From UHGV virus genome UHGV-0098804: DNA of 31,623 nucleotides. One strand, 5' to 3'. Numbering within the stretch: the first letter of the stretch is position 1; each line of letters begins with the position of its first letter. Below are positions 22,605 to 29,244 of the stretch, one piece after another. Source of the stretch: a virus. Position numbers and translations under genes: made by a program. The notes under the pieces are model-generated. The model did not search any database. It was not told the origin of the DNA and saw only the letters and a program-made list of their open reading frames with translations.

Positions 22605-23372
22605 TCACCCCATAGATATCGAGGTTTCGGTAATAATACGTTTTGCGTCCAACTCCCATGCTGTGATCACGTCTGCAATCACACTTATCGGCGCTTGTGT
22701 GGCATAAATACGCTCTTCTCCAATTGGTGCTGAAACATCCGTAAAGCCGACTTCTTTGGCATCCTGTATCGAGCAAATCAGCGGGACCGGAACACGAACA
22801 AGGTGAGTGGTTGCTTCAAATTGTGTACCTGTCATCAGGCGAAGCCGTGCGCCCAGCGAATTACACATCAGACTCATGGTCGCTTTATCAGTTGCCATTA
22901 ACGTAACGTCATACGTCAGAATGGCCTGGGTGTATTCCAGTTCTGCTAAAGGCATTCCGGTATCCGGTTCGCAAAAACTGGCTACTTTTTTGCGGTCAAT
23001 CTGCTGATCATCGTTGATATAATTGATATCCATAGTGCGTGAGATATTGACCAGGGGGAGAGCATCCCGGTTAATGTTCTGGTTTTCAGGTTTTCTCCCT
23101 TGCCCGGCATTTGCGCGACGAACTGCTTTAAGAAACTCGATCGCATTGTCGAAACGGGCCACATAGACACGCTCTGCTGGTGGACGATTCAAGAATGACG
23201 CAAAGCGTTTTTCTTCCGGCGCGGGGGCCACCAGTAAGATATCAGAAAAGATATTGCTGATTAGCGTAGCAAACGCGTTATCCACGTTTTCAAAGCCCGT
23301 GGTCTGGAATTTCCCTGTGCGTGAGGTTTGCCATTCACCTGTTCGCGCCAGGAGGGTTTTATTTGAAGTCAT
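22605..23372 (-). CDS. Hypothetical tail/baseplate protein (255 aa)
   Basis: Track ORF in operon context; overlaps the upstream ORF by 4 bp. Confidence 0.45.
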   Translation of the reverse strand: MTSNKTLLARTGEWQTSRTGKFQTTGFENVDNAFATLISNIFSDILLVAPAPEEKRFASFLNRPPAERVYVARFDNAIEFLKAVRRANAGQGRKPENQNINRDALPLVNISRTMDINYINDDQQIDRKKVASFCEPDTGMPLAELEYTQAILTYDVTLMATDKATMSLMCNSLGARLRLMTGTQFEATTHLVRVPVPLICSIQDAKEVGFTDVSAPIGEERIYATQAPISVIADVITAWELDAKRIITETSISMG

Positions 23373-24160
23373 TCGATCACTCCGTTTTGAGTCGTATCAA
23401 AATTCCTGGCAGGTATGCAGTAGTAAAGCGAACCAACATGCTGTGTGCCGTAGCTAAAAATACGGTGCACGTACCACCAGCGGCGGGCTACGCCGTTTAC
23501 CATCTCTTCATTCCATTCAAGAATTGATCCGACGGGGACGTTATTTGCTGCAATACGCAGAATCAGAACATCATCGGTTAAGCCATCCTGCTCACCGTCT
23601 GCGTCAATCGCATGGAAAGAGTCACGCCCGTCCGGGTTATCCAGCACATAAACGATTTCAGGTTCCTGGTAAGTCAGTTCGCGCTGGTTGTTATCCAGTT
23701 CAGTGAATGACTCTTCTCCTGTTTCGTCGCTGACTACCCCATATGTGCCAACATCTGGTCGATATAAGAGAGCCTGAAACGCGTCTGGGCTGGATTCAAT
23801 AATCAGCATCCAGTCTGCGCGGATTTGGTCGTTAAAGGCTTTATGCCCGTTATAGCGTGCTTTTAGCTGTGGAGTTGGTTCTCTGCCAGCCAGGGAAGGT
23901 GGAAGTATGGCTATATCTGATTCGGCAGCATCCGGAGTAAGGCCAGCGTTGCTATCAGCAAAATTATCATGGCTATCAGCTTTGGCGGCGGGTTGCTCTT
24001 CCAGAATGCTGAATGAATCCGAACCGGTATTGCCATGTTCCGGCGCACCTCCTGCATTCGCTTCAATCGGCGCTGGCGTTTCTCTCTGCGTGCTGTCATG
24101 TTCTGACTCCTTACTTGCCAGGTTTGCATCGTCAGCAAACCATTCGTCAAAACGGCCCAT
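23369..24160 (-). CDS. Hypothetical protein with acidic N-terminal half (about 264 aa)
   Basis: Track ORF 23369..24262; GAGG lies 6 nt before the second ATG at 24160 (MGRFDEW...), preferred over the track start. Confidence 0.45.
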   Translation of the reverse strand: MGRFDEWFADDANLASKESEHDSTQRETPAPIEANAGGAPEHGNTGSDSFSILEEQPAAKADSHDNFADSNAGLTPDAAESDIAILPPSLAGREPTPQLKARYNGHKAFNDQIRADWMLIIESSPDAFQALLYRPDVGTYGVVSDETGEESFTELDNNQRELTYQEPEIVYVLDNPDGRDSFHAIDADGEQDGLTDDVLILRIAANNVPVGSILEWNEEMVNGVARRWWYVHRIFSYGTQHVGSLYYCIPARNFDTTQNGVIE

Positions 24161-24322
24161 AAGCATCCTCAAAGGTCGATCTGTCAGGTATCGAAAGGAA
24201 GATTTTCGGGAGATTGTGATTTTGGATGAAGGAGGGGGAATCCATAAAGTGCACTTGCGCACAGTGCAACAGTGCGCTATAGTTATGGCATTCGGTAATC
24301 ATCACGGAGGATCAAATGACTA

Positions 24323-24625
24323 ATGACCAAAAAAATTAACATAAAGGATTTCAGGGATGCGTGGCTTGATGATTTTTTTGAATTTTCAACACCACATAGA
24401 AAGATACCTCCTGATATTCATATGACATTGTCACGGAAGTTGGACATTATCAATGCCGCAACTACCTGTAAGGATTTAAGATCACCACCAGGTAATCGGT
24501 ATGAGGAACTGTCAGGGAAGCTAAATGGCTATTCATCAGTAAGGGTGAATAAGCAATATAGGTTAATTTTTAAGTGGGTTAACGGAAAGGCCGAGGACTT
24601 GTATCTCGACCCTCACAAATACTAA
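24323..24625 (+). CDS. higB: HigB-like toxin (RelE/ParE superfamily, plasmid-killer type)
   Basis: C-terminal LRSPPGNRYEELSGKLNGYSSVRVNKQYRLIFKW...DLYLDPHKY matches the recalled HigB toxin pattern (PPGNRLE...SIRIN.QWRICF...DYH); toxin-first gene order; GGAGG at 24305. Confidence 0.75.
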   Translation: MTKKINIKDFRDAWLDDFFEFSTPHRKIPPDIHMTLSRKLDIINAATTCKDLRSPPGNRYEELSGKLNGYSSVRVNKQYRLIFKWVNGKAEDLYLDPHKY

Positions 24626-24695
24626 AACAGATACCCGGTTACGGACCGGGTTCTGACCAGAGTCCACTTAATACGCACGCTAGTAAGGGCAAAAA

Positions 24696-25034
24696 ATGAA
24701 ACAGGCAACCAGAAAACCGACGACCGTAGGTGATATCCTTCTGTACGAATACCTGGAGCCGTTAGAGCTGAAGATCAACGAGTTAGCAGAAATACTTCAT
24801 GTTCATCGTAACACCGTAAGTGCTCTTGTTAATAATAATCGTAAGCTAACGATGGATATGGCATATCGCCTGGCAAAAGCATTCGATACTTCTGTAGATT
24901 TTTGGATTAATCTTCAGACCGCAGTAGATCTGTGGGAAGTCGAAAATGATATGCGCGTTCAGGAAGAGTTAAGTCGTATCAATACTGCTGAAAAATTTAT
25001 TTCTCAGCGGAACCTGAATAAAAAAGCAGCCTGA
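24696..25034 (+). CDS. higA: HigA-like antitoxin (XRE-type HTH)
   Basis: HTH region LAEILHVHRNTVSALVNNNRKLTMDMAYRLAKAFDTSVDFWINLQTAVDLW matches the HigA antidote pattern; immediately downstream of higB. Confidence 0.8.
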   Translation: MKQATRKPTTVGDILLYEYLEPLELKINELAEILHVHRNTVSALVNNNRKLTMDMAYRLAKAFDTSVDFWINLQTAVDLWEVENDMRVQEELSRINTAEKFISQRNLNKKAA

Positions 25035-25055
25035 TATAGTAAAATACATACAAAA

Positions 25056-25084
25056 AGCCCACTTAGCAAGTGGGCTTTCCTTTG
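25056..25084 (+). terminator. Rho-independent terminator after higA
   Basis: agcccactt agc aagtgggct followed by ttcctttg. Confidence 0.55.
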
Positions 25085-25090
25085 TAATTA

Positions 25091-25291
25091 ATGAACATTA
25101 AACCTATCCGTACAGAACAAGATTATGAGGCCGCACTGCGTGCGGTCGAACCGATGTTCGATAACGAACCGGAAATGAATACTCCGGAAGGTGATTTCTT
25201 TGAGGTTATGAGTCTTCTCATTGAGGAGTACGAGAAGAAACATTACCCAATTCAGCCACCATCACCTGTTGAATCTTTTAACTATCCATAA
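25091..25291 (+). CDS. Orphan antitoxin-like N-terminal domain ORF (66 aa, no HTH): possible remnant of a third TA module
   Basis: IRTEQDYEAALRAVEPMFDNEPEMNTPEGDFFEVMSLLIEEYEKKHYPI resembles the N-terminal non-HTH domain of E. coli K-12-type HigA antitoxins (recalled). Starts right after a terminator with no SD; the usual C-terminal HTH is absent and an AT-rich gene follows. Confidence 0.4.
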   Translation: MNIKPIRTEQDYEAALRAVEPMFDNEPEMNTPEGDFFEVMSLLIEEYEKKHYPIQPPSPVESFNYP

Positions 25292-25312
25292 TAAAAGTAA
25301 TCAGGATAAGCT

Positions 25313-26041
25313 ATGATGTCAGAAAAAGTTACAGATAATCCGTCTATAAATGAAACAGAACTAAAATCATTTTCTGAAATAATAAAAGATAAAATATTTA
25401 ACAAGGTTTTTGCATATGTTGTCATTTCTTTTCTAATTTTTAACTGGAAGGATATTTTAATTATATTAAAGTCAAAGGACGACATCCTATATACATTATC
25501 TATTGTTTTTGTTGGTGGTAATGTCCCGTTCTTTGATAATTGGATTGTATCCCCGTGGGTTTATCACGTTGTAATCCCATTTGTTTATGGAGTATTTGCA
25601 TCTGTGTTAGCTCCTATTCTCACACTGAAGATATCTAAGCTAACAAGTAAATTATACACTGAAATAAGATATTTGGATGAAGTTGCTGATTATGATAAAA
25701 GAATAGAATTGCAAAGAAAGAAAACAAAGTTAAATCAAGCAACCAATGACGCTAAATATTCAAAACAAATCTTAGATGAAAATGAAAATAAACTTAATGA
25801 CCTAGCTAAGAAACAGCGAGAAATTTGTGGCGCGATAAAACTATTGCATACTGATGTTGGCAGTATTATTGAGCTATATAAAAATAAGGGGGTTAGCATT
25901 GAATCTCCGCAAGATTTATGTGATTTTATAGTCGCTATAAAAAGCACATCATTCTATAATGATGACAAGCATTTTAATAAATTGGTGTCTGATATTTCCA
26001 GTTTGTTTGATAATACTGGAATTGATCTTTCAAAAAAATGA
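25313..26041 (+). CDS. AT-rich accessory gene: multi-pass membrane N-terminus plus C-terminal coiled coil (242 aa), function unknown
   Basis: Track ORF with AGGA SD. Composition is visibly far more AT-rich than the flanks. Hydrophobic segments (FAYVVISFLIFNW; LSIVFVGGNVPFF; VVIPFVYGVFASVLAPILTL) then a charged heptad-like region. Confidence 0.6.
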   Translation: MMSEKVTDNPSINETELKSFSEIIKDKIFNKVFAYVVISFLIFNWKDILIILKSKDDILYTLSIVFVGGNVPFFDNWIVSPWVYHVVIPFVYGVFASVLAPILTLKISKLTSKLYTEIRYLDEVADYDKRIELQRKKTKLNQATNDAKYSKQILDENENKLNDLAKKQREICGAIKLLHTDVGSIIELYKNKGVSIESPQDLCDFIVAIKSTSFYNDDKHFNKLVSDISSLFDNTGIDLSKK

Positions 26042-26074
26042 AAGCCCAGCATAAACTACTAGGCTATGTGTGGT

Positions 26075-27268
26075 TTATGCTTTTTTCACGTACTCTATAA
26101 ACATCTTCTCAGCCTGTTCTTGTGGCGTTCCAGCCATGACAAGCGCATCAATGAACGCCTGCTTCTTCAGTGCGAACTGATCGGCAAGGCGTTGCTGAAG
26201 TTCCTTATTTTTCTGTTTCTCACGTTGCAAGGCCGCTTCTTTTGCAGCCGCCCGTTTTTTCTGTGCGTCTGACAACTTTCTGGCCCTGGTCAATTGGTCA
26301 CGTAGCTTGTCGATCTTGCCGTTGTCCTTTGCCAGTTTTGTACTTAAAGCTGCCTGGCGCTTCTGATAGAGCCTCCATTCGCGCTTGGCAGCGTCAACGT
26401 TTGTTTTACTGTTGCGATTGCGATTAAACTCCCTCTCGTCTTCTTTTGAGAAGTGTTTGGTTGTACGGCGGCGATCGTCACCAAATGCAATTTGCGTTGC
26501 GGCCTTTTGTAACGCACGAGCAATACTCATTTGCCAACTAGCGGACTGTAACCGCGTCATTGAGTGGATCACGTGTTTACAGGCGACGCCTTGTAGCTTA
26601 GGGTTACGAACTTTTGGATAGGCGTATTCTTTTGGCGGTGCCAGGGCAAAGTTACCCGCAGTAGCGATGTAACGATACCAGTATTGATGACGACCACAGT
26701 CACAATCGAAAGACACCCGCCCGGCGCACAGTGATTTAGTGATTTTCAGAGCTGATTTATCGTCTTCTGCGATGTCATCGACCATCTGATCCCATTCTTC
26801 AAAGCGTATCCGGACGATATGGTGCTGGTGGACGGATATATCCGATGCTTCTACGCGGATATTAATCACGTTGTGGCGAAGAGATACAGGTGTAGCTCTT
26901 TTGATACCAGATCCGTCATCCACGGCGTTATTTGCACGCTTAATATCGATTGCCTGGCTGGATGCCACCAGCTGGGCGTATGTGATGCCAGCCGTCTTGC
27001 TGTCATATTTTTCGCGTGTTTTACTCCGTAGCTTTTCGAAACCTTTCAGGTCGTCTCGCGTGAAGAACGTGCCGCCTTTTTTCTTCCCTAACTTGAGAAT
27101 ATCTTCGGCGGATTTGTTCCTCAGTCTACCTGGCGTCAGCGTCCGGTGAGCTTGTCGGCGCTTACGGGTTTGTTCTTTCCTGATAAGGTCGAATAAACGC
27201 GTGAAGTCCTTAGAGGACAGGCCGTCAGTGATATAGCGCCCGTCCTGGTTTTTCAGGAAATCAGGCAT
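26075..27268 (-). CDS. SWIM-zinc-finger-like protein with Lys/Arg/Glu-rich coiled-coil C-terminus (397 aa), function unknown
   Basis: Track ORF; GGAG SD; FDCDCGRHQYWY...CKHVIH fits a CxC...CxH SWIM-type finger; start overlaps the upstream ORF stop by 8 bp (ATGCCTGA). Confidence 0.6.
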   Translation of the reverse strand: MPDFLKNQDGRYITDGLSSKDFTRLFDLIRKEQTRKRRQAHRTLTPGRLRNKSAEDILKLGKKKGGTFFTRDDLKGFEKLRSKTREKYDSKTAGITYAQLVASSQAIDIKRANNAVDDGSGIKRATPVSLRHNVINIRVEASDISVHQHHIVRIRFEEWDQMVDDIAEDDKSALKITKSLCAGRVSFDCDCGRHQYWYRYIATAGNFALAPPKEYAYPKVRNPKLQGVACKHVIHSMTRLQSASWQMSIARALQKAATQIAFGDDRRRTTKHFSKEDEREFNRNRNSKTNVDAAKREWRLYQKRQAALSTKLAKDNGKIDKLRDQLTRARKLSDAQKKRAAAKEAALQREKQKNKELQQRLADQFALKKQAFIDALVMAGTPQEQAEKMFIEYVKKA

Positions 27269-27590
27269 TTTCTATCTCCGGTTCCGCGCTTGCGTAATCA
27301 CGGATCTTGTTCCTCAGCCATGCCACATCAGGAAGAGTTAACGTGGTCCCTGCGGGCATTTCTTCCATCTCTGACTCATGGCCCACCAGCACCCGGAATA
27401 CCCAGCGCAAATCTGCATTGCCATACGCCCTGTAGGCTGCAAGGTCTGAACGATATACTTCATCAATCTTTATCGTGTACTGGAAATTATCAGAGTGATA
27501 CTCCGATACCCGCTTAATCATTTCCTGGTGAAACAGCGCACGAAAAATATCGTCTTCAATGTACCTATCGTCGAGTCTGCTATAGCCCAT
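27261..27590 (-). CDS. Hypothetical protein (109 aa) translationally coupled to the SWIM-like gene
   Basis: Track ORF; GAGGGG SD about 9 nt upstream of the ATG; no family recognised. Confidence 0.5.
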   Translation of the reverse strand: MGYSRLDDRYIEDDIFRALFHQEMIKRVSEYHSDNFQYTIKIDEVYRSDLAAYRAYGNADLRWVFRVLVGHESEMEEMPAGTTLTLPDVAWLRNKIRDYASAEPEIENA

Positions 27591-27651
27591 AACAAAGCCC
27601 CTCAGTCATAACCTGGGGAAAACTGTATGCAGGGTGTGAAATGCGAGAAAG

Positions 27652-27677
27652 CAGCGTCACCAGGCCTGGTGACGCTG
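27652..27677. promoter_or_regulatory. Perfect 26-bp palindrome (cagcgtcaccagg|cctggtgacgctg) just downstream of higA-2: terminator or operator
   Basis: Seen in sequence; on the minus strand it is followed by a T-rich stretch (ctttctcgcattt). Confidence 0.45.
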
Positions 27678-27682
27678 TGAAA

Positions 27683-27976
27683 TTATGCGTGGAAAAATAA
27701 TGGACGGATGTTTGGGCGAGTGGTTTGCGAAGCAACCCAAAGCTCATACTGGGATTGCATACCGGTCCACATTTCGGCACTGGTTCCAAGAGCGGACTCC
27801 AGACGAAGTGCCATATCAGCAGATATACCTGCTTTTTCATTCAGAATTCGGGAAAGCGCCGTGCGAGTAATGCCTAATGCCGCAGCGGCGTCTGTGACTG
27901 ACATGTCTCCCAAATATTCACGAAGAACCGCGCCTGGATGCGCGGGATTATGCATACGACTCATAGTGTTCCTCAA
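27683..27976 (-). CDS. higA: HigA-like antitoxin (second copy, XRE HTH)
   Basis: [18 protein letters not shown]...[38 protein letters not shown] is the canonical HigA pattern; 4-bp overlap with the upstream toxin gene. Confidence 0.8.
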
Positions 27977-28254
27977 TGATAATCCTGATAGTCAACTAGA
28001 ATTGCGTCTTCTCCTTCAAATCGGAAGGTAAGTCGCCAGTTACCGTTTACCGATATTGCCCAGTGACCTTTAAGGTCCGCCCCCTTTAGAGGGTGCAATT
28101 CCCATCCAGGCGCAGACATATCGTCCGGGCGTTTAGCTGTATTAAGCGCAGTCAATTGAATGCGTAGCTTAACCGCATGTTTGGCCTGAATGCCTGCGGT
28201 TGAACCTGTCTTGAAAAAGCGTTCAAGCCCTTTATGGCGAAATGACTTAATCAA
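27973..28254 (-). CDS. higB: HigB/RelE-like toxin (second copy); probable TTG start giving [14 protein letters not shown]...
   Basis: [13 protein letters not shown]...[43 protein letters not shown] matches the HigB/RelE toxin pattern. Track ATG at 28317 adds 21 atypical residues; a TTG at 28254 with GGA upstream restores the conserved N-terminus. Start uncertain. Confidence 0.7.
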
Positions 28255-28590
28255 AATAATTCCATTCGTGCGTGCAACCTGTGTATATACGCTACACGCA
28301 GAAAGAGTAAAATGCAAGCACTATCCGTATAGACAGAGTTTTTTCGCCACCCTGGAATTTATTGACTGTCAACAAGTGACTTTCATTAATCTTAAGGCGT
28401 GGACCAGCTCGATAGTGAGCTGGGTGTTATTTACCGATCGAATGGATTCGAAAAGATGAATATTTTTAATAAGCTGATTGATTTATTGAATAAATTCATT
28501 AGTGCTTCTTTAACTCAGCAGGTATCCACGTCAGTGTTTTTGTTACTCTTCTACCTGGTATTGAGGGAGTTAACAAAGCTACTAATGTGA

Positions 28591-29244
28591 TCAAAGTATC
28601 ACGGTATCTTCATCAACTTCTTTCCCAGCCAGTGACTTTGGCTGGGAGGTGCCTGCTTTAACTTTTTCATGCCCAATAATGGACAGGAACGAAGCGAGTA
28701 TGCCTGTTTTTTGCTCTTTCTCGACTGTGCCGGTCATCTGCTCTACGTAATCTGCACTGGCAACGTTGTGGTATACGGTCGCGTAGCAACACAGGATCAT
28801 CAGAATATGCTCCGGCCTGATATCCTGCCAGTTCACCCTGTAGACTTCTTCTCCGTTACCGTTGTATTCGGTATCAACGATAGAGTCGGGGATTTCGAAA
28901 GCACCTTTGTTATTTTGCGGCAGGGATAATAGCTTCTGGAGTTTTAACTCTCTGTATCTTTCCATCCCGACGATGATTGCTGCTCTGCCATCGGCATGAC
29001 GGGTCTTGAGAGTCACCTGGCTTGCTCCGGTGCCAGCGGAGATCGTTGGCGTAATTTCGTCTACCAGTACCTTAAATTTGCTTTTCCGCAGGGCTGCTAT
29101 AGCTGGAGGAATTTTTTGCTTTTGCTCCAATGCTGACGCGGGAAGGGGTTTTACTTCGTTAATAATGAGAGCACCGTCTTTCAGTATTGCAGTGAGCATT
29201 TGAGGCTTGCTGGTGGTCAGGCTGAATATTGCGATCTTTTCCAT
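28591..29244 (-). CDS. Hypothetical protein (about 217 aa)
   Basis: Track ORF 28591..29286; GGAGGAAGG lies before the ATG at 29244 (MEKIAIF...), and the 14 codons upstream of it are read through terminator hairpin sequence. Confidence 0.5.
   Translation of the reverse strand: MEKIAIFSLTTSKPQMLTAILKDGALIINEVKPLPASALEQKQKIPPAIAALRKSKFKVLVDEITPTISAGTGASQVTLKTRHADGRAAIIVGMERYRELKLQKLLSLPQNNKGAFEIPDSIVDTEYNGNGEEVYRVNWQDIRPEHILMILCCYATVYHNVASADYVEQMTGTVEKEQKTGILASFLSIIGHEKVKAGTSQPKSLAGKEVDEDTVIL

Follow-up and report, generated by a model that had tools for sequence, protein, structure and literature searches.

What lies between the two oppositely oriented higBA toxin-antitoxin (TA) modules of a D6-like viral genome, and do the two modules belong together? 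The question is raised by UHGV virus genome UHGV-0098804, a stretch of 31,623 nucleotides that we analysed at its full length (hereafter, the window). From the letters alone, HigB/HigA pairs at 24323-25034 (plus strand) and 27683-28254 (minus strand) had been predicted to bracket a single 3-kb accessory cassette of unassigned, compositionally foreign genes: an orphan antitoxin N-domain open reading frame (ORF), an AT-rich gene for a membrane/coiled-coil protein, which we refer to as mem, and a coupled operon for proteins of 109 and 397 amino acids (aa). The ORF list contains all of these ORFs where this original prediction placed them, and both HigBA pairs are real as judged by Pfam, NCBIfam and PDB matches. 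The window is 93% identical in nucleotide sequence to phage D6 and 100% identical to the 92.5-kb E. coli plasmid NZ_CP032875, which assigns it to a D6-type (P1-like) phage-plasmid. We argue below that the region is probably the P1-type tail/baseplate cluster of this element, interrupted by two independent accessory slots, A and B, in which addiction modules and a polymorphic moron have settled; this is our favoured interpretation for the locus as a whole.

The coupled pair of genes is where the one-cassette model fails. The 397-aa ORF (26075-27268, minus strand) encodes a homologue of the P1 tail protein gp25 (56% identity, 8e-137; PHROG tail, 4.8e-196). The 109-aa ORF (27261-27590, minus strand), which overlaps it by 8 nt, encodes a homologue of gp26 (PHROG baseplate wedge, 2.3e-36; annotated in D6 as orf75) that is 41% identical to the P1 protein (40.6% over 96 aa by tblastn). 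In P1 (NC_005856), genes 26-25-7-24-6-5 form a single contiguous late operon under LP26, with a gap of 3 bp between genes 25 and 7, and the window has the same genes in the same order. This order is retained in the D6 clade, yet it is broken between genes 25 and 7, where, in contrast to P1, 0.3-2.9 kb of opposite-strand accessory DNA is located and a terminator-like hairpin (26043-26065, minus strand; its T-tract overlaps the final mem codons) follows gene 25 and ends the 26-25 transcript. Gene 7 (23369-24160, minus strand; D6 orf69, ‘similar to P1 gene 7’; PHROG tail, 1.6e-115) is the first gene of 7-24-6-5, the downstream half of the split operon, and its product is 98-100% identical across relatives. 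On the other side, the homologue of the virion maturation gene mat (28591-29244, minus strand; D6 orf78, ‘similar to P1 gene mat’), which forms the right flank of slot B, encodes a product 99-100% identical in relatives. Given the homology to P1 gp25 and gp26, the synteny, which is kept from P1 to D6 and in every relative examined, and the backbone-like GC content (48-49%; window, 46.8%), the two genes are core structural genes and not cargo. The original prediction had named conserved synteny in the relatives as the outcome that speaks against it, and for half of the cassette this is what we find. No D6-clade relative with gp25 and gp26 variable or absent and the TA modules fixed was seen among the loci surveyed. 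The description of the bracketed genes as unassigned and foreign thus survives for mem, which has a GC content of 29.4% and no named match, and is withdrawn for the other two. RefSeq and the D6 record already carry annotations for the TA modules and the tail genes.

Slot A (24223-26074) extends over 1,852 bp between genes 7 and 25, with 1,914 bp separating the gene 7 ATG from the gene 25 stop codon, and contains HigBA-1, a 66-aa HigA relic and mem, all on the plus strand, i.e. opposite to the tail genes and transcribed away from gene 7. Both variable segments were delimited by alignment of the window to D6 and, separately, to other relatives. A segment of 62 bp upstream of gene 7 (24161-24222) is common to all D6-clade lineages and sets the left edge of slot A at 24222/24223; the blastn alignments of the window with five relatives (L021, L054, L058, L065 and L067) all stop at 24222-24230. 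The HigBA-1 cassette (24223-25083, plus strand) consists of a palindromic promoter region, higB1, higA1 and a hairpin. HigB1 (24323-24625) is a toxin of the PF05015 HigB-like/GraT type (Pfam, 4.4e-35; PDB GraT 6F8S, 2.8e-14), and HigA1 (24696-25034) is an antitoxin of the Xre type with a helix-turn-helix (HTH) domain (TIGR02607, 102.5 bits against an equivalog cutoff of 47.7, which HigA2 of the other module also exceeds; HTH_3, 7e-11). The toxin gene comes first, separated from higA1 by 70 bp, and begins 162 bp from the gene 7 ATG, in good agreement with the predicted distance of about 160 bp to the start of the baseplate operon. Upstream of higB1, a promoter-like TTGCGC-17-TATAGT with GCGCAC/GTGCGC palindromes can be read by eye and is suggestive of an operator only. 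The 9-mer AAATGACTA directly before the higB1 start codon (24314-24322, plus strand) reproduces the -22 box of P1 LP26 verbatim, with no -10 box at a suitable spacing; by chance alone, a window of this size would contain about 0.24 such matches, so the AAATGACTA match is probably a coincidence. Between higA1 and the relic ORF lies a bidirectional hairpin (25052-25080), for which the terminator scan shows a strong T-tract on the minus strand and a weak one on the plus strand.

The 66-aa ORF (25091-25291, plus strand), predicted as an orphan antitoxin N-domain, is exactly that (phrog_10398, 1.6e-42; residues 1-65 of PD-Lambda-2_B, 2.5e-16): it corresponds to the N-terminal part of a K-12-type HigA, the 119-aa product of D6 orf72, from which the HTH domain has been deleted. 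Full-length orf72 aligns to E. coli K-12 HigA (PDB 5IFG) across both domains, and in relatives of the L021 type a PF09907 HigB is located 4 bp upstream of orf72 as its cognate partner. In the window lineage the segment with the K-12-type toxin has been swapped exactly for the HigBA-1 cassette, with boundaries at 24223 and 25083, whereby the orf72 antitoxin was orphaned. A 200-bp deletion in the orf72 region, found only together with the window-type mem allele, took the HTH domain and, with it, a terminator-like hairpin that in D6 and L021 stands between orf72 and mem. Among the PLSDB plasmids, orf72 sequence is present in 115, and 21 of these still have the K-12-type toxin. We regard the 66-aa fragment as a likely relic rather than a functioning TA module.

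Slot B lies in the interval between gene 26 and mat, where an insert of 878 bp (27651-28528, minus strand) with HigBA-2 takes the place of 206 bp of D6 sequence. HigB2 (27973-28254, minus strand) is a toxin of the Rts1/Proteus HigB type, aligning end to end with 4MCT_B (4e-23; Pfam PF05015, 1.2e-20), including the C-terminal DYH; its longest ORF reaches 28317, and the protein is annotated at 93 aa in relatives. HigA2 (27683-27976, minus strand; TIGR02607, 98.6 bits against the cutoff of 47.7; matches to PDB GraA and HigA) is encoded after the toxin, with a 4-nt overlap between the two genes. A perfect 26-bp palindrome, detected by self-blast, lies just past the higA2 stop codon at the slot B junction (27652-27677). 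HigBA-2 is present in 25 PLSDB plasmids, 17 of them D6-like and 8 large and conjugative, the latter at approximately 90% identity. We considered whether the two HigBA pairs arose by duplication and rejected this: they are 30-32% identical and share no DNA repeat. For the same reason they are not the matched frame that the original prediction took them for.

If the two modules framed one cassette, they should come and go together; in the relatives they do not. We surveyed the relatives twice: a first set of 27 loci was retrieved via the membrane protein and PLSDB matches, and a second set of 38 loci, of which 30 D6-clade loci have a readable slot A, was anchored on gp25, which avoids selecting for cargo. 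HigBA-1 occupies slot A in 16 of the 30 loci; in other lineages the same segment is occupied by K-12-type higB, namely a PF09907 HigB followed 4 bp on by orf72 (7/30), while a second, more divergent K-12-type HigB/HigA pair is present in 2/30 and no TA module in 5/30. One further element has ParE (PF05016) and an HTH protein followed by mem. Of the 30 loci, 24 carry the membrane-protein gene and 6 lack it. In two divergent lineages (gp25 73-74% identical) mem is not accompanied by any TA module, and relatives at the level of P1 (gp25 56%) have no slot A. D6 itself lacks HigBA-2 and carries full-length orf72. Slot B is in most loci an empty spacer of about 330 bp, with HigBA-2 in a minority. 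Altogether, at least 10 content states were counted for slot A and at least 4 for slot B, between flanks that are 95-100% identical. HigBA-1 is found in 91 PLSDB plasmids (at least 99% identical in 87 of them) and in approximately 79% of D6-like plasmids, HigBA-2 in approximately 19%. The two modules thus occupy independent slots and vary independently among relatives, rather than bracketing one cassette. Among 5,426 complete E. coli genomes, 95 have slot A, in each case on a plasmid; the window-type arrangement with mem occurs in 51, and mem is present on plasmids in at most 1.75% of the 5,426.

Several single cases illustrate what the slots can hold. An IS3-family insertion sequence (IS) interrupts orf72 within slot A of one plasmid (L006 2708-3936), and another such element lies in slot B of a second plasmid (L027 6467-7740), so both slots tolerate insertions. 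An extra gene for a 159-aa protein adjoins gene 25 in slot A of some relatives (L025 4832-5311; L062 and L067 5935-6411); the protein has no Pfam or PADLOC match, and in L067 its gene is the sole content of the slot. In slot B of one relative (L025 7157-8081 / L062 3162-4083), a PF05973 Gp49-type toxin and an HTH antitoxin stand in the place of higB2, adjoining an intact orphan HigA2. As in slot A, a toxin has here been displaced and its antitoxin orphaned, which makes this arrangement a second such case. A conserved small ORF lies between slot B and mat (28399-28590, plus strand; 63 aa) with the hydrophobic C-terminus VFLLLFYLVLRELTKLLM; it is convergent with mat, is also present in L027, and its D6 counterpart, orf77, is 45 aa long.

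This leaves mem (25313-26041, plus strand; 242 aa; D6 orf73 family, phrog_8191, of unknown function), the AT-rich gene of the original prediction. All its alleles have a low GC content (28-35%). Hydropathy gives two candidate membrane spans, at approximately residues 32-54 and 78-108. An AlphaFold2 model from 21 family members (mean predicted local distance difference test score, pLDDT, of 76.8; two-sequence input gave 51) has short helices at the N-terminus, one long helix (residues 81-192, about 110 in all) and, at the C-terminus, a small bundle of helices. We thus describe mem as a predicted inner-membrane coiled-coil protein with two transmembrane helices. The loop joining the two hydrophobic helices is unconserved across the family. 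In a Pfam search with the 21 family members only coiled-coil noise was returned, and the top Foldseek hits in the PDB, pore domains of K+ channels and glutamate receptors (E >3, about 100-125 columns), were given no weight.

For mem, a word-indexed search returned only two E. coli alleles, an exhaustive profile search yielded 40 cluster representatives among 1.84 billion proteins, and no relatives were found in the reference genome contigs. The IMG/VR homologues number 22, with identities down to 35%, and every one of them is in slot A, between genes 7 and 25. The mem genes in slot A fall into 11 classes at a threshold of 70% identity, with 20-68% identity between classes; for the proteins that flank mem in these elements the identity is 95-100%. 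Synonymous divergence (dS) between the window and a D6-type locus is 1.25 for mem and 0.03-0.12 for gp25, gp26, gp7, gp24 and mat. The gene-wide ratio of nonsynonymous to synonymous divergence (dN/dS) of mem is 0.17-0.51, as compared to 0.00-0.17 for most comparisons of the neighbours; mem is thus under purifying selection. High dS amid near-identical flanks, together with this dN/dS, shows that the alleles are old and have moved between near-identical backbones by recombination, rather than having been made by local hypermutation. It is the N-terminal membrane anchor that is conserved; the coiled coil and the C-terminus vary. One allele class is found together with gp7 proteins that are either 79% or 98% identical to that of the window.

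Distant homologues of mem (20-29% identical) are located outside the phage-plasmids, at the edge of small recombinase-bearing islands beside yciI on the chromosomes of enterobacteria. Those of Citrobacter, E. coli and further enterobacteria lie between yciI and a serine recombinase gene (L037 4304-5765, L032 4309-5732, L029-L031 4046-5738). Several are 12-17 bp downstream of a gene for a DUF4145 protein, which directly precedes the mem homologue in L037, L038 and L032; the copy in L037 and L038 matches PADLOC PD-T7-4, an experimentally found defence gene, at 5e-13. In L029-L031 the upstream gene encodes a 221-aa protein with no Pfam or PADLOC match. The DUF4145 gene and the mem homologue may form a two-gene unit.

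How does the locus compare with known systems? With the Rts1/Proteus vulgaris HigBA and Pseudomonas putida GraTA systems both window modules share the toxin-first order, the PF05015 toxin and an Xre-type HigA. HigB2 aligns end to end with Rts1 HigB, GraT is the best solved relative of HigB1, and Rts1 HigBA is plasmid-borne, like both modules here. They differ from these systems in being embedded in the tail cluster of a phage-plasmid, as two non-cognate copies beside phd-doc, a TA system that is also carried by D6. The HigBA of E. coli K-12 (PF09907 HigB, two-domain HigA) is resembled over both domains by orf72 of D6 and L021; in contrast, the window has no toxin gene of this type, and its antitoxin is cut to 66 aa without the HTH. 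PD-lambda-2, which defends against lambda-vir, has a B component with a HigA-like HTH and a C-terminal peptidase, and requires a C component related to the P4 antitoxin (PMC9519451). Its A component and the first 119 residues of B are homologous to the K-12-type HigB and orf72 of the relatives (2.6e-42 and 6.9e-43). The window ORF covers positions 1-65 of the 402 of the B profile, as compared to 1-119 for full-length orf72. HigB1 and HigB2 are unmatched in PADLOC, an A homologue occurs only in relatives such as L021, and no protein of slot A or slot B matches the PD-Lambda-2_C model. For lack of the peptidase domain and of the C component, we rejected membership in PD-lambda-2.

The tail clusters of other prophages offer a further comparison for mem: morons and superinfection-exclusion genes are found among tail genes, examples being HK97 gp15 and cor of T1, phi80 and N15. 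By analogy with these, mem would likewise be a small membrane protein gene of foreign composition, with its own transcription unit, dispensable and placed in a tail cluster. It differs from them in its long coiled coil and in the number of its deep allele classes (at least 11), and resembles none of them in sequence or fold.

The history that we propose builds on what the sequence comparisons show: the anatomy of the locus, its homologies, the slot boundaries, the turnover of TA modules, and the polymorphism of mem and its selection regime. Slot A would have split the ancestral 26-25|7-24-6-5 operon, with mem as its oldest resident, present in many ancient alleles that were exchanged by recombination through the conserved flanks. 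Type II TA modules would have landed repeatedly between mem and gene 7, displacing one another: a GraT/HigB-like HigBA-1 cassette presumably replaced the toxin gene of a K-12-type higBA, orphaning its antitoxin, and a later 200-bp deletion would have left only the first 66 aa of the orphan and taken out the hairpin before mem. Slot B, upstream of gene 26, appears to have captured an Rts1-type HigBA-2, kin to the copies on large conjugative plasmids. From what is known of their family, HigB1 and HigB2 would act as ribosome-dependent mRNA interferases restrained by HigA. By post-segregational killing, and together with phd-doc, the modules may stabilise the low-copy plasmid prophage; the abortion of infections is a further possible effect. 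Plasmid stabilisation is documented for the higBA of Rts1 and of Vibrio, and lambda infection is aborted by a HigB-type toxin-antitoxin-chaperone module (PMC11980606). The orphan fragment could at most neutralise K-12-type HigB from rival elements. As for mem, its context and evolutionary pattern make it conceivable, at somewhat less than even chances, that it is a moron expressed in the lysogen which excludes or aborts incoming phages, with specificity residing in the variable cytoplasmic part. We do not take mem and the TA modules for one system: each occurs without the other, and in most cases a hairpin stands between the two, which suggests that they are neighbours.

A number of observations weigh against parts of this interpretation. 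For an exclusion or defence role of mem, it is unhelpful that the protein has no match in Pfam, NCBIfam or PADLOC and that Foldseek returned nothing significant from the viral (BFVD) and PDB libraries. The gene is also dispensable, being missing from 6/30 D6-clade loci and frameshifted in two contigs (L044 and L048). The terminator-like hairpin found between orf72 and mem in most arrangements makes a functional coupling of mem to the TA modules doubtful. With phd-doc already on the plasmid, the extra addiction modules may be redundant selfish passengers. In DefenseFinder surveys, D6-like elements were almost devoid of complete defence systems (bioRxiv 10.1101/2025.09.12.675607). Finally, a hairpin after gene 25 and two further minus-strand hairpins across slot A imply that genes 7-24-6-5 need a promoter of their own; none was recognised, nor was a P1-type late promoter in the common 62 bp.

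Four other explanations were considered. A single mobile cassette of 3 kb for defence or anti-defence, framed by the two HigBA modules and including the 109-aa/397-aa operon, would fit the geometry, which is as originally described, and TA modules are commonly found alongside defence islands. It is nevertheless highly improbable and refuted by the comparison of relatives, given that gp26 and gp25 are at the same place in P1, D6 and every relative and have backbone GC, that the two TA modules are gained and lost independently, and that the pairs have little identity and no common repeats; mem merely shares slot A with HigBA-1 and is not functionally enclosed by the pair. What does stand of the predicted variable hotspot is that accessory DNA with TA modules varies among relatives around conserved structural genes, as does mem; the TA modules, expected to be constant, vary too, half of the supposed cargo is core, and PADLOC detects no defence system in the window and only TA modules, IS and unknown genes in the slots of relatives. 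The profile and structure searches that had been suggested for the cargo identified gp25 and gp26 and left mem unmatched in PADLOC, Pfam and Foldseek. Alternatively, the slots may simply be the few insertion-tolerant spots of a densely packed late-gene cluster, in which TA modules accumulate by resisting loss and mem is a passenger without benefit to phage or host. Presence/absence polymorphism, the IS insertions, the frameshifted mem copies, the orphan antitoxin relics in both slots and the phd-doc already on the plasmid can all be rationalised in this way; we nonetheless consider it unlikely, because mem has a conserved membrane anchor and is under purifying selection (dN/dS 0.17-0.51), its deep alleles are kept at one locus across lineages with gp25 down to 73% identity, and HigBA-1 is nearly invariant (at least 99% identical in 87 plasmids).

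The remaining two explanations give mem a different partner. It might serve the phage cycle (lysis timing, tail/baseplate assembly at the membrane or genome ejection), co-evolving with the tail proteins, as would be allowed by its predicted membrane location and by its position, which in all D6-clade lineages examined is within the tail/baseplate cluster. However, mem is on the strand opposite to the late genes and fenced by minus-strand terminators, it is absent from P1 and from six D6-clade loci, the same class accompanies both the 79% and the 98% identical gp7, and distant homologues reside in non-phage chromosomal islands beside a PD-T7-4-like gene, all of which makes such a role very unlikely. 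A three-part system, with HigBA acting mainly as an abortive-infection defence and mem as its membrane effector or sensor, draws on the matches of K-12-type HigB and orf72 to PD-Lambda-2 A and the B N-terminus, and on a TA module preceding mem in 22 of 24 mem-carrying slots. The peptidase domain and C component of PD-lambda-2 are absent, however; four unrelated TA types precede mem; mem without TA and TA without mem both occur; and the terminator-like hairpin separates orf72 from mem. We regard this reading, too, as distinctly unlikely. We thus return to addiction modules and a polymorphic moron in two tail-cluster slots as the best overall account.

Some further features of the core genes and their transcription deserve mention. 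The units of the locus are fenced by the hairpins at 26065-26043 (minus strand) and 25052-25080 and by the 26-bp palindrome at 27652-27677; an Rfam scan of 23.8-29.6 kb gave zero matches. An apparent inverted repeat linking gene 25 to the orf72/orf73 region of D6 was rejected as an artefact: the sequence file also contained the P1 locus, and a check gave no hit. A search with the LP26 pattern returned one weak match (28374-28392), below chance expectation. In gp25, residues 180-240 or so (26528-26731) contain a CxC...CxH motif (FDCDCGRHQYWYRY...GVACKHVIH) that resembles a SWIM zinc finger and is conserved in P1 gp25, with no Pfam call. This 200-bp core of gene 25, by itself, is present at about 85% nucleotide identity in approximately 180 large plasmids of Klebsiella, Raoultella and E. 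coli, of which many have been typed as conjugative; 189 Klebsiella matches at 80-90% identity were rejected as relatives of the accessory genes, since they cover only this core.

In surveys of P1- and D6-like phage-plasmids this locus is named neither as a variable region nor as a defence locus (PMC9603915; bioRxiv 10.1101/2025.09.12.675607; PMC10879196), and the literature searched yielded no account of it. As judged here, it is an accessory hotspot of a familiar kind, with one uncharacterised, highly polymorphic membrane protein. The locus illustrates that TA modules on both sides of a set of genes do not make these genes cargo. It also indicates that the D6 branch tolerates a split of the tail/baseplate late operon in every sampled lineage, with gp25 down to approximately 73% identity. 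The combination of deep alleles, recombination and purifying selection seen in mem is a population-genetic signature typical of immunity, exclusion and defence loci, and mem is missing from the defence catalogues (PADLOC here). More tentatively still than its role as a moron, mem could be a new exclusion or abortive-infection determinant of phage-plasmids, its at least 11 allele classes, kept at one fixed slot and exchanged by recombination, representing specificity groups against rival phages or D6-like elements, with the TA turnover reflecting addiction and anti-addiction in the competition between incompatible phage-plasmids. The displacement of an old toxin by a new TA module, with an orphan antitoxin left behind, is found in both slots and provides a natural example of TA turnover, one in which anti-addiction between competing plasmids might be studied.

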